A DNA stretch of 64,000 bases from Escherichia coli. GTDB lineage: Bacteria > Pseudomonadota > Gammaproteobacteria > Enterobacterales > Enterobacteriaceae. Positions within the stretch are counted from its first letter, which is position 1. Every line of letters starts with the position of its first letter. Location of the stretch: NCBI RefSeq assembly GCF_003334765.1, contig NZ_QOWT01000008.1; one strand, 5' to 3'. The notes under the pieces were generated by a model. It worked only from the letters and a program-made list of their open reading frames with translations, made no database searches and was not told where the DNA came from. Both the position numbers and the translations under genes were made by a program. This document shows, in pieces, positions 23,643 to 63,921 of the stretch.

Positions 23643-23826
<184 letters not shown>

Positions 23827-46541: not shown

Positions 46542-46639
<98 letters not shown>

Positions 46640-62497: not shown

Positions 62498-62656
62498 GTG
62501 AAAGATATTTTATTTTCTTCCGGCGTTGGTTTTGGTATTGGTGCTTTGTTTACAATCGTGCGCTTGCCTATTCCTGTACCAAATGTATTACCGGGTATAT
62601 TATCCATTGTGTTTATGTATGTCGGATATCTGGTGGTGAAATACTTTATGCCATGA
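62498..62656 (+). CDS. candidate 52-aa hydrophobic small protein (unverified)
   Basis: GTG start with weak AAGG upstream; translation VKDILFSSGVGFGIGALFTIVRLPIPVPNVLPGILSIVFMYVGYLVVKYFMP; below ORF-track cutoff; AT-rich with rare codons. Confidence 0.2.
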   Translation: MKDILFSSGVGFGIGALFTIVRLPIPVPNVLPGILSIVFMYVGYLVVKYFMP

Positions 62657-62696
62657 TAATTTAATACGATGTATTTATTATATGGAGCACTTAATT

Positions 62697-63581
62697 ATGG
62701 AACGCGTATACAGAACAGATCTTAAGTTGCTCCGTTATTTTCTTGCCGTAGCGGAAGAGTTGCATTTTGGCCGCGCAGCAGCGCGTTTAAATATGTCTCA
62801 GCCTCCGCTCAGCATTCATATTAAAGAGCTGGAAAATCAACTCGGCACGCAGCTTTTTATTCGCCATTCGCGCAGCGTCGTACTGACACACGCGGGCAAA
62901 ATCTTGATGGAAGAATCGCGTCGATTGCTGGTGAATGCTAATAATGTATTGGCTCGGATTGAACAAATAGGTCGGGGAGAAGCAGGGCGGATTGAACTCG
63001 GCGTAGTGGGAACGGCAATGTGGGGACGGATGCGCCCGGTTATGCGGCGATTCCTCAGGGAAAATCCTAACGTTGACGTTCTTTTTCGCGAAAAGATGCC
63101 CGCGATGCAAATGGCCTTGCTGGAACGCCGCGAACTTGATGCCGGGATCTGGCGAATGGCGACAGAACCACCGACTGGTTTTACCAGCTTACGGTTGCAT
63201 GAATCGGCGTTTCTGGTGGCGATGCCTGAAGAGCATCATCTCTCATCATTTTCCACCGTCCCGCTGGAAGCGCTACGTGACGAGTATTTTGTTACAATGC
63301 CGCCCGTTTACACTGACTGGGATTTTTTGCAGCGAGTTTGCCAGCAGGTGGGATTTTCACCGGTTGTTATTCGCGAAGTTAATGAACCGCAAACGGTACT
63401 CGCTATGGTCAGTATGGGCATTGGTATCACATTGATAGCGGACAGCTACGCACAAATGAACTGGCCAGGTGTCATTTTCCGTCCGCTCAAACAGCGCATC
63501 CCTGCAGATTTATATATTGTTTATGAAACACAGCAGGTGACGCCCGCGATGGTTAAGCTGTTGGCTGCATTGACACAGTAG
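62697..63581 (+). CDS. xapR: LysR-family activator XapR
   Basis: Internal ATG 62697 gives 294 aa starting MERVYRTDLKLLRYF. Confidence 0.9.
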   Translation: MERVYRTDLKLLRYFLAVAEELHFGRAAARLNMSQPPLSIHIKELENQLGTQLFIRHSRSVVLTHAGKILMEESRRLLVNANNVLARIEQIGRGEAGRIELGVVGTAMWGRMRPVMRRFLRENPNVDVLFREKMPAMQMALLERRELDAGIWRMATEPPTGFTSLRLHESAFLVAMPEEHHLSSFSTVPLEALRDEYFVTMPPVYTDWDFLQRVCQQVGFSPVVIREVNEPQTVLAMVSMGIGITLIADSYAQMNWPGVIFRPLKQRIPADLYIVYETQQVTPAMVKLLAALTQ

Positions 63582-63646
63582 GTGAGGAGACAGGAATTGC
63601 CGGAAATAGTAGTCTGCTAAGTGAAGCGCATCAGGCAATTTCGCAA

Positions 63647-63707
63647 ATCGCAGATAGCAAAAAAGCGCCTTTAGGGCGCTTTTTTACATTGGTGGGTCGT
63701 GCAGGAT
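63647..63707. repeat. 61-bp direct repeat, copy 1: terminator hairpin plus 3'-terminal 18 nt of tRNA-Lys (copy 2 at 63803-63863 runs into intact lysV)
   Basis: ATCGCAGATAG(C/T)AAAAAAGCGCCTTTAGGGCGCTTTTTTACATTGGTGGGTCGTGCAGGAT occurs twice, 156-bp period, one mismatch. Confidence 0.8.
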
Positions 63708-63845
63708 GACTCGCTTCGCTCGCCCTTCGGGCCGTCGCCGCGAGCGGCTCCGTTGTTTCGCTGCGCTCAACTCAAACCTGCTGCAGGTTCGAATCTTTGA
63801 GTATCGCAGATAGTAAAAAAGCGCCTTTAGGGCGCTTTTTTACAT

Positions 63846-63921
63846 TGGTGGGTCGTGCAGGATTCGAACCTGCGACCAATTGATTAAAAGTCAACTGCTC
63901 TACCAACTGAGCTAACGACCC
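63846..63921 (-). tRNA. lysV: tRNA-Lys (anticodon UUU)
   Basis: Reverse complement gives a 76-nt tRNA with anticodon loop CTTTTAA and CCA end. Confidence 0.95.

Follow-up and report, generated by a model that had tools for sequence, protein, structure and literature searches.

A strain-variable tRNA-linked repeat of the RtT type at the end of the lysV operon in Escherichia coli

Organization of the lysV operon end

The DNA analysed in this work is a stretch of 64,000 nucleotides from Escherichia coli (hereafter the window), at one end of which a tRNA-Val gene and the tRNA-Lys(UUU) gene lysV are followed, on the minus strand, by a terminator, a 95-nt segment and a second, partial copy of the operon end. 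The features present in this region are listed below.

63926 to the end of the window: tRNA-Val (tRNA search).
63846..63921, minus strand: tRNA-Lys(UUU), lysV (ARAGORN; Rfam tRNA, 79.2 bits; RefSeq tRNA-Lys annotation).
63803..63863, minus strand: inner 61-nt copy, consisting in the sense order of the 18-nt lysV 3' end, AAUG, T1 and CUAUCUGCGAU.
63813..63843, minus strand: terminator T1, a bidirectional intrinsic terminator (A6-GCGCC / GGCGC-U6; inverted repeat).
63783..63795, minus strand: inverted lysV T-arm 13-mer GCAGGTTCGAATC (sense strand GAUUCGAACCUGC), 13/13 complementary to 63861-63873.
63708..63802, minus strand: 95-nt core of the tRNA-linked repeat, referred to as a spacer in the initial annotation (Rfam RtT alignment, minimum free energy (MFE) fold and alignment of units).
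63690..63815, minus strand: match to RtT RNA, RF00391 model positions 1-130 (Rfam).
63690..63707, minus strand: orphan tail, equal to the 18 terminal nt of tRNA-Lys (AUCCUGCACGACCCACCA); a 3' end of this kind defines the tRNA-linked repeats.
63684..63770, minus strand: TTG-initiated ORF of 28 codons (MSAAKQRSRSRRRPEGRAKRVILHDPPM; ORF list), judged not to be a gene.
63657..63687, minus strand: terminator T2, a copy of T1 in register at -156 nt.
63647..63707, minus strand: outer 61-nt copy, made up of the orphan tail, T2 and 11 nt.

Comparison of the window with itself revealed a 61-nt direct repeat (63647-63707 and 63803-63863; start-to-start distance 156), the two copies of which are 98% identical and differ solely by a C at 63658 versus a T at 63814. 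The repeat comprises the 18 nt at the 3' end of tRNA-Lys, then the terminator of lysV and a further 11 nt. The orphan tail (63690-63707) matches the 3' end of lysV (63846-63863) at 18/18 positions, with the CCA included; the upstream 61-nt copy is devoid of a tRNA body, whereas the downstream copy runs on into the intact tRNA-Lys(UUU). For this 18-mer, allowing up to 3 mismatches, 0.03 occurrences are expected in a 64-kb window and two were found, both of them exact, hence their presence by chance is ruled out. The initial annotation of this DNA had described a 61-bp repeat with one mismatch and its copies 156 bp apart, an intact tRNA downstream and an orphan copy upstream, and a 95-bp spacer carrying a T-arm fragment in the opposite orientation; all of these elements were confirmed by the self-comparison, ARAGORN and the repeat search, and the T-arm fragment proved to be an exact 13-mer (63783-63795) that belongs to the first hairpin of the core.

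The region downstream of lysV can be described as 1.39 copies of a 156-nt tandem unit, which begins, also on the minus strand, 44 nt beyond the CCA of lysV. The inner 61-nt copy is the normal end of the valU/lysV operon. The post-terminator sequence GCTATCTGCGAT is found also in strains and species that lack the extra unit and, as both it and the terminator are retained even at such zero-unit loci, the 61-nt repeat simply represents the ordinary operon end. The two terminators were identified from their inverted repeats together with the published work on the lysV terminator; a simple consensus terminator scanner reported neither T1 nor T2, probably because the A/T arms lengthen the stem and leave no T-run behind it. 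T2 faces the convergent gene xapR, the ORF of which ends at 63581 on the plus strand, and it can terminate xapR as well. In strains with another cassette at this place, homology to the window begins at about 63644.

Assignment to the tRNA-linked repeat family

In the Rfam search, this region matched RtT RNA (RF00391) over the full model with a score of 47.3 bits against a gathering score of 45, a margin of just 2.3 bits, with the outer stem of the model being mostly unpaired in the lysV copy; E-values of 5e-8 and 4.7e-6 were obtained in the local and whole-window scans, respectively. A feature named "RtT sRNA" is annotated by PGAP between xapR and tRNA-Lys in many of the RefSeq E. coli genomes (our E. 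coli search set comprised 5,426 complete genomes), and an equivalent RtT ncRNA feature was present in 3 E. coli RefSeq records that were inspected. The RefSeq record for MG1655 (NC_000913.3, 2521329-2521592) contains no feature between lysV and xapR, a gap that is likely to lead to this element being rediscovered.

The tRNA-linked repeats (TLRs), which go back to an observation by Egan and Landy (1978), are defined by an 18-19-nt 3' end that is identical to that of the upstream tRNA or rRNA; K-12 contains 22 copies of them at ten loci (after Rudd, 1999), and some of the units follow 5S rRNA genes (Stenum et al., 2021, PMC8144298). A viable strain from which all 22 TLRs are deleted has also been constructed (supplementary strain table, PMC8144298). 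Its genotype, the elements of which sum to 22, includes delta(rlV), of approximately 96 nt, at 2519426-25[19]521 in older MG1655 coordinates, where the end coordinate as printed has an evident typo (PMC8144298). Based upon its position beside lysV at 2.519 Mb, we infer that the element in the window is rlV. Thus, the duplication, which the initial annotation did not recognise as known, belongs to a family that has been known since 1978, is represented in Rfam and is annotated by PGAP, and the lysV copy itself is individually catalogued (PMC8144298).

Similar to the K-12 TLRs, the lysV unit immediately follows a tRNA gene, with which it shares both operon and orientation, and its 3'-terminal 18 nt are the same as the 3' end of its tRNA. 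It also contains the core sequence ...CGGCCCGAAGGGCGAGCGAAGCGAGUC that is common to the other Lys TLRs. In view of its duplicated terminators, it corresponds to a terminal subtype of these repeats, of which the lysQ unit and the TLRs of the rRNA operons are other examples. We are therefore highly confident that the feature beside lysV is real and that it is an ordinary, already catalogued member of the TLR/RtT family, which forms a tandem unit of variable copy number at the operon end.

Copy number among E. coli strains and other species

The number of units downstream of lysV differs among E. coli strains in an exact 156-nt register: UPEC 536 and O157 contain none, the window and C11 contain one, and two are found in PSJ-22. 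In a query with unique anchors of 60 evenly spaced genomes, 37 were informative (plus-orientation records only), 18 of which had one unit and 19 had none. Within this 37-genome sample, loci flanked by xap had one unit in 14 cases and none in 14, while those with the FlxA-like flank had one unit in 4 cases and none in 5. As 0 and 1 units both occur with either flank, the presence of the unit is independent of the neighbouring cassette. In a second evenly spaced sample (n=60), two units were present in 2 genomes and one unit in 23, about 30 genomes had none, and 5 were ambiguous. Based upon these samples of 37 and 60 genomes, scored by per-row spans, about half of the sampled E. coli genomes are without a lysV unit and many of them also lack the unit at lysQ; apparently, some 38% of the sampled genomes have no unit at either of these sites. 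State counts of 4,176, 1,356 and 1,359, which were obtained using a cutoff of at least 80% query coverage, were rejected, as they are inflated by a strand-dependent joining of pieces: minus-strand one-unit loci show 100% coverage in 299 nt, and a two-unit lysQ locus can likewise exceed 80% coverage.

The initial annotation had left the choice between the scar of a lost element and a local duplication. The latter option is borne out in the form of a tandem unit whose number varies among strains; rather than all related genomes being identical, single, duplicated and triplicated states were observed, in exact units and with no islands.

Several other sequence differences were noted at these loci. 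In PSJ-22, the outer unit (extracted piece 1809-1903) differs from the first at 3 positions, all in hairpin 1 (GAACCUGCAGCAGGUUU against GAAGCUGCCGCAGGUUC): a C to G change that breaks a stem pair, a change in the loop, and one that converts a G-U into a G-C pair. As the two cores differ at three positions, the two-unit allele is not a fresh duplication. Position 63814 (T on the plus strand; A in the RNA, immediately after the U-run of T1) is a variant of T1 in the K-12 lineage (UUUUUUAC); a G at this position (UUUUUUGC) is present in C11, PSJ-22, UPEC 536, O157 and both of the lysQ terminators. Upstream of lysV, in the valU-valX-valY region that extends past the end of the window, the number of annotated tandem tRNA-Val genes also varies among E. 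coli (2, 3 or 4), which suggests the same dynamics of unequal recombination among the near-identical Val genes.

The Val-Lys junction was also scanned in one genome per species, which provided loci from many enterobacterial genera. For 57 Val-Val-Val-Lys operon ends from other species, these being the ones with enough downstream sequence, 25 had no unit, 27 had one, four had two and a single locus had three, where some of the loci scored as zero may hold units that have decayed and whose tail is no longer perfect. Some of the zero-unit loci start like a unit and lack a perfect tail, which suggests that they are decayed units.

Related repeats at other loci

The closest relative of the lysV unit is located at the lysQ end of the lysT operon (K-12, 0.78 Mb), which is near-identical to the lysV end over approximately 230 nt. 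The two modules share the tRNA-Lys, T1, the 95-nt core, the 18-nt tail and T2; however, the homology past the U-run of T2 extends for 5 nt at lysQ versus 11 nt at lysV, and the length of the repeat is accordingly about 55 nt in the former and 61 nt in the latter. At the K-12 lysQ end (extracted piece 1354-1560), the unit is polymorphic as well, with 0, 1 or 2 units being found among E. coli.

Elsewhere in K-12, RF00391 matched 4 units at tyrT-tyrV and 5 in the lysT operon (one per tRNA-Lys gene), and orphan cognate tails are present after argV, argZ and argQ. The internal Lys units, which are found between the tRNA genes of the lysT operon, are shorter than the lysV unit and without terminators, and they have the common 3' core AACGGCCCGAAGGGCGAGCGAAGCGAGUC followed by the tail. 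In the Arg, Tyr and internal Lys units, the shared core is preceded, on its 5' side, by a segment that is complementary to the tail specific to the locus: GGGAGGAU pairs with AUCCUCCC in the Arg units, GGGGAAGGAU with AUCCUUCCCC in the Tyr units, and GUGAAGGAU with AUCCUGCAC, with one mismatch, in the internal Lys units. In contrast, the lysV/lysQ type has no such tail pairing and contains instead the hairpin ACUCAAAGAUUCGAACCUGCAGCAGGUUUGAGU, of which the inverted T-arm is a part. Tyr and Arg units, as well as many Lys units, possess an outer stem in which the tail takes part, and this stem is disrupted in E. coli units of the lysV/lysQ type. Since the flanks match the cognate tRNA in Arg, Lys and Tyr units, the ends of the TLRs, on either side of the core, follow the tRNA next to which they lie. 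It was also observed that, in the K-12 Arg units (serV-argVYZQ) and likewise in many of the Lys units from other genera, the sequence flanking the core on its 5' side complements the cognate tail almost perfectly, and that the Tyr units (tyrTV) contain T-arm fragments of their own tRNA in both inverted and direct orientations; Arg units carry the inverted piece only.

The RtT RNA, or rttR, of the tyrT-tyrV operon was reportedly described by Bosl and Kersten in 1991. In comparison to the tyrT RtT, the lysV unit is collinear across the whole 130-position model, and the tandem units at both loci end in their cognate tail. However, the tandem unit is 178 nt in length at tyrT versus 156 nt at lysV, the tyrT copies score 133-138 bits with RF00391 in contrast to 47 bits for lysV, the tail and the T-arm-derived parts of the lysV unit are Lys-specific, and it is only for tyrT that the rtT RNA has been detected experimentally. 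The rrA, rrB and rrF units of rrnA, rrnB and rrnD show the same layout as that seen at lysV (a stable-RNA gene, T1, a TLR with an 18-nt tail, T2), but their core differs from the lysV core and the rrnB unit has no RF00391 match at E<0.01. As the rrnB TLR is missed by the RtT model, RF00391 covers a part of the TLR family and not all of it.

Structure of the core

The lysV unit folds as two hairpin domains (MFE z = -2.6). In an alignment of 35 distinct Lys-type units, the consensus determined with RNAalifold contains several hairpins, and 90.2% of the cells were paired on the stated structure versus 31-51% when the partners were slid. Five pairs had changed on both sides (alignment columns 37-51, 40-47, 61-73, 62-72 and 77-85), examples of which are C-G/U-A at 62-72 and A-U/G-C/C-G at 40-47, and the covariation score observed was reached by 0/500 shuffles. 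The G-U pairs count as standard only if the tRNA-sense strand is read. The inner hairpins of RtT are retained in the lysV-type units, with compensatory changes. These compensatory changes support the existence of a structured RNA core and indicate that the TLR family is not free-drifting junk.

The outer helix of the Rfam type is 72% paired across the Lys-type units and it is unpaired in the E. coli/Citrobacter/Kluyvera type. In the alternative fold that was obtained with RNAalifold, GCAGG pairs with the CCUGC of the tail; as the columns of GCAGG and CCUGC are invariant, covariation cannot choose between these outer-stem folds. In the sense direction, the unit consists of GCAGG-UUUGA-[~65-nt structured core]-UCAU-CCUGC-ACGACCCACCA, which in our model may be read as a T-arm and the 3' strand of an acceptor stem, with the T-loop split by the core and an inverted T-arm placed ahead. 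In a separate prediction for the read-through RNA (63647-63921, minus strand), lysV is paired through its 5' acceptor strand to the orphan tail rather than to its own 3' end, with T1 and the core enclosed. Such an alternative pairing between the acceptor strand and the orphan tail, if it forms as predicted, could disturb the processing of the read-through RNA.

Expression, processing and turnover

No sigma-70-like promoter site was found in the segment 63400-64000, and hence the lysV unit would be transcribed only when the polymerase reads past T1. The full-length valU transcript is approximately 438 nt long, i.e. it ends at T1, and with a Northern probe on the lysV terminator this species alone was seen for valU (Agrawal, Mohanty and Kushner, 2014, PMC4176162). 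Given that only the ~438-nt species was seen, read-through of T1 at lysV may be negligible. The same work shows that the lysV terminator is removed by RNase P through cleavage 2-3 nt past the CCA, and that lysQ has an identical terminator; the repeat is unmentioned in it (PMC4176162). In the rRNA operons, TLR RNAs arise by read-through of T1 and are processed near the repeat (PMC8144298). A read-through RNA from lysV is predicted to carry a second copy of the context ...ACCCACCA-AUG-terminator that is cut after lysV by RNase P (or RNase E). As the tail-AAUG-terminator context is duplicated, the same cleavage would free the unit in the form of an RNA of about 125 nt with a tRNA-like end. The initial annotation had surmised that the duplication might supply alternative termination or processing sites, and a duplicated terminator and duplicated processing signals are indeed present in the sequence.

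Judging from the structure of the alleles, units are probably gained and lost by homologous unequal crossing-over, or by replication slippage, between the 61-nt copies, and gene conversion with the near-identical lysQ module perhaps contributes to this. Turnover of this kind would yield exact 0-, 1- and 2-unit alleles and, in other genera, 3-unit alleles. The lysV unit is dispensable.

Alternative explanations for the repeat

The arrangement at lysV resembles the attL/attR repeats of integrated elements in that it involves a direct tRNA 3'-end repeat that starts within the T-loop and lies beside a strain-variable block. The T-loop is the target position of one class of tRNA-targeting integrases, and it could be envisaged that an element entered the T-loop/3' end of lysV, duplicated it as attL/attR and then lost its integrase and cargo, with the 95-nt segment being its remnant; the fact that direct tRNA 3'-end repeats flank a non-tRNA segment, and that the variable cassette (xapRBA-yfeN or a FlxA-like gene) starts only 3-4 nt outside the outer repeat, is in accordance with such a site-specific integration scar. 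However, the 95-nt spacer is itself a TLR core, homologous to the cores at other tRNA loci where each is joined to its own cognate tail, units are found between the tRNA genes of the lysT operon where the terminator is not duplicated, and units also occur after 5S rRNA genes (PMC8144298). Further, the alleles differ by exact 156-nt units, no sampled genome has cargo between the repeats, and the presence of the unit is unrelated to the neighbouring cassette. No integrase gene, integrase remnant or foreign cargo was detected between the repeats (95 nt; ORFs of 28-35 codons), no integrase was present at the neighbouring positions in the records compared, where xapR or the FlxA-like gene is found, no attP match was identified in 50,697 phage records, and no additional orphan end of tRNA-Lys that might delimit the xap block is present in the 64-kb window. 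The integration scar offered in the initial annotation is, therefore, very improbable, and the spacer is best regarded as a member of the TLR family. It is similarly hard to credit that the repeat arose only recently as a neutral duplication in this strain alone, or that it is an artefact of assembly; the single mismatch between the 61-nt copies agrees with either of these, but the same arrangement is present in thousands of complete genomes, at lysQ and in many genera, the units of a two-unit strain differ at three positions, and the likelihood of this explanation is next to nil.

Two other proposals ascribe a product of its own to the unit. A structured RtT-like RNA, made by read-through and freed by the enzymes of tRNA processing, could act in trans similar to RrA, RrB and RrF, which bind Hfq and CsrA; the compensatory changes and strand-specific G-U pairs seen across many genera, the retention of the unit at the lysV operon end in 32 of the 57 species, and the precedent of the rRNA-operon TLRs are all in its favour. 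Nevertheless, the lysV unit is missing from about half, and the lysQ unit from many, of the sampled E. coli genomes, a strain without any of the 22 TLRs has been built (PMC8144298), and the valU transcript mostly stops at T1 (PMC4176162). Moreover, binding to Hfq and CsrA has been shown in vitro or predicted for the rRNA units rrA/rrB/rrF only, the 19 tRNA-operon TLRs scored <0.01 as CsrA binders, and the stringent-response phenotype formerly claimed for rtT RNA has been retracted (PMC8144298). The covariation could also reflect selection for propagation or processing, and we consider a trans-acting function unlikely. The 28-codon ORF (63684-63770, minus strand) could, on the other hand, encode an arginine-rich, tpr-like "protamine-like" peptide, given that its reading frame across the core is also the one used by the tpr annotated in the tyrT repeat, and that both contain R-R-P-E-G-R. 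However, its start codon is TTG and no ribosome-binding site is evident, the pattern of conservation is that of paired RNA helices, and indels of 2, 3 and 4 nt occur inside the ORF across genera, so that the frame is not kept; it was on account of these frame-breaking indels across species that the tpr-like ORF was rejected as a coding sequence, and a small protein gene at this site is extremely improbable. The architecture of TLRs may also be a record of their origin or of mimicry, in which case the core would be the relic of a small element that inserted into the T-loop region of a tRNA and copied its 3' end, or else the RNA would be a selected mimic of the 3' half of tRNA, serving as a decoy or buffer for RNase P, RNase T/PH or the CCA-adding enzyme; both of these suggestions are, in our view, rather doubtful.

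Significance of the variable units

The present work adds the observation that, at both lysV and lysQ, the unit is naturally polymorphic, in its presence or absence as well as in its copy number. Although these units are missing from about half of the sampled E. coli genomes, their core shows compensatory changes across genera. Outside of the three rRNA-operon TLRs, for which binding to Hfq and CsrA in vitro is described, no function has been reported for any TLR (PMC8144298), and the natural strains with 0, 1 and 2 units are available for tests of function. Partial tRNA 3'-end repeats, when considered alone, are an unreliable sign of integrase activity, and TLRs constitute a systematic false positive in the Enterobacterales for the heuristic that is based upon tRNA-end repeats.

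Neighbouring gene block and other features of the window

The gene block beside lysV is strain-variable. In the K-12 type, it consists of yfeN-xapA-xapB-(DUF1427 ORF)-xapR, and in O157:H7, a B strain and C11 a single FlxA-like gene abutting yfeR replaces the xap block. The switch between cassettes occurs after ...GCTATCTGCGATTTG, at a distance of 3-4 nt beyond the outer repeat; the segment considered was 58000-63644, and nowhere in the window was a repeat, integrase or tRNA fragment found to bound the xap block. Of the strains with the FlxA-like neighbour, C11 has one unit, whereas O157 and B have none. Lastly, two matches that are unrelated to the lysV repeat were reported by the whole-window Rfam scan, viz. 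naRNA4/CssrE at 23695-23776 on the plus strand (71.8 bits; gathering score 59.5) and ES036/CssrF at 46563-46605 on the minus strand (40.9 bits; gathering score 37.6).
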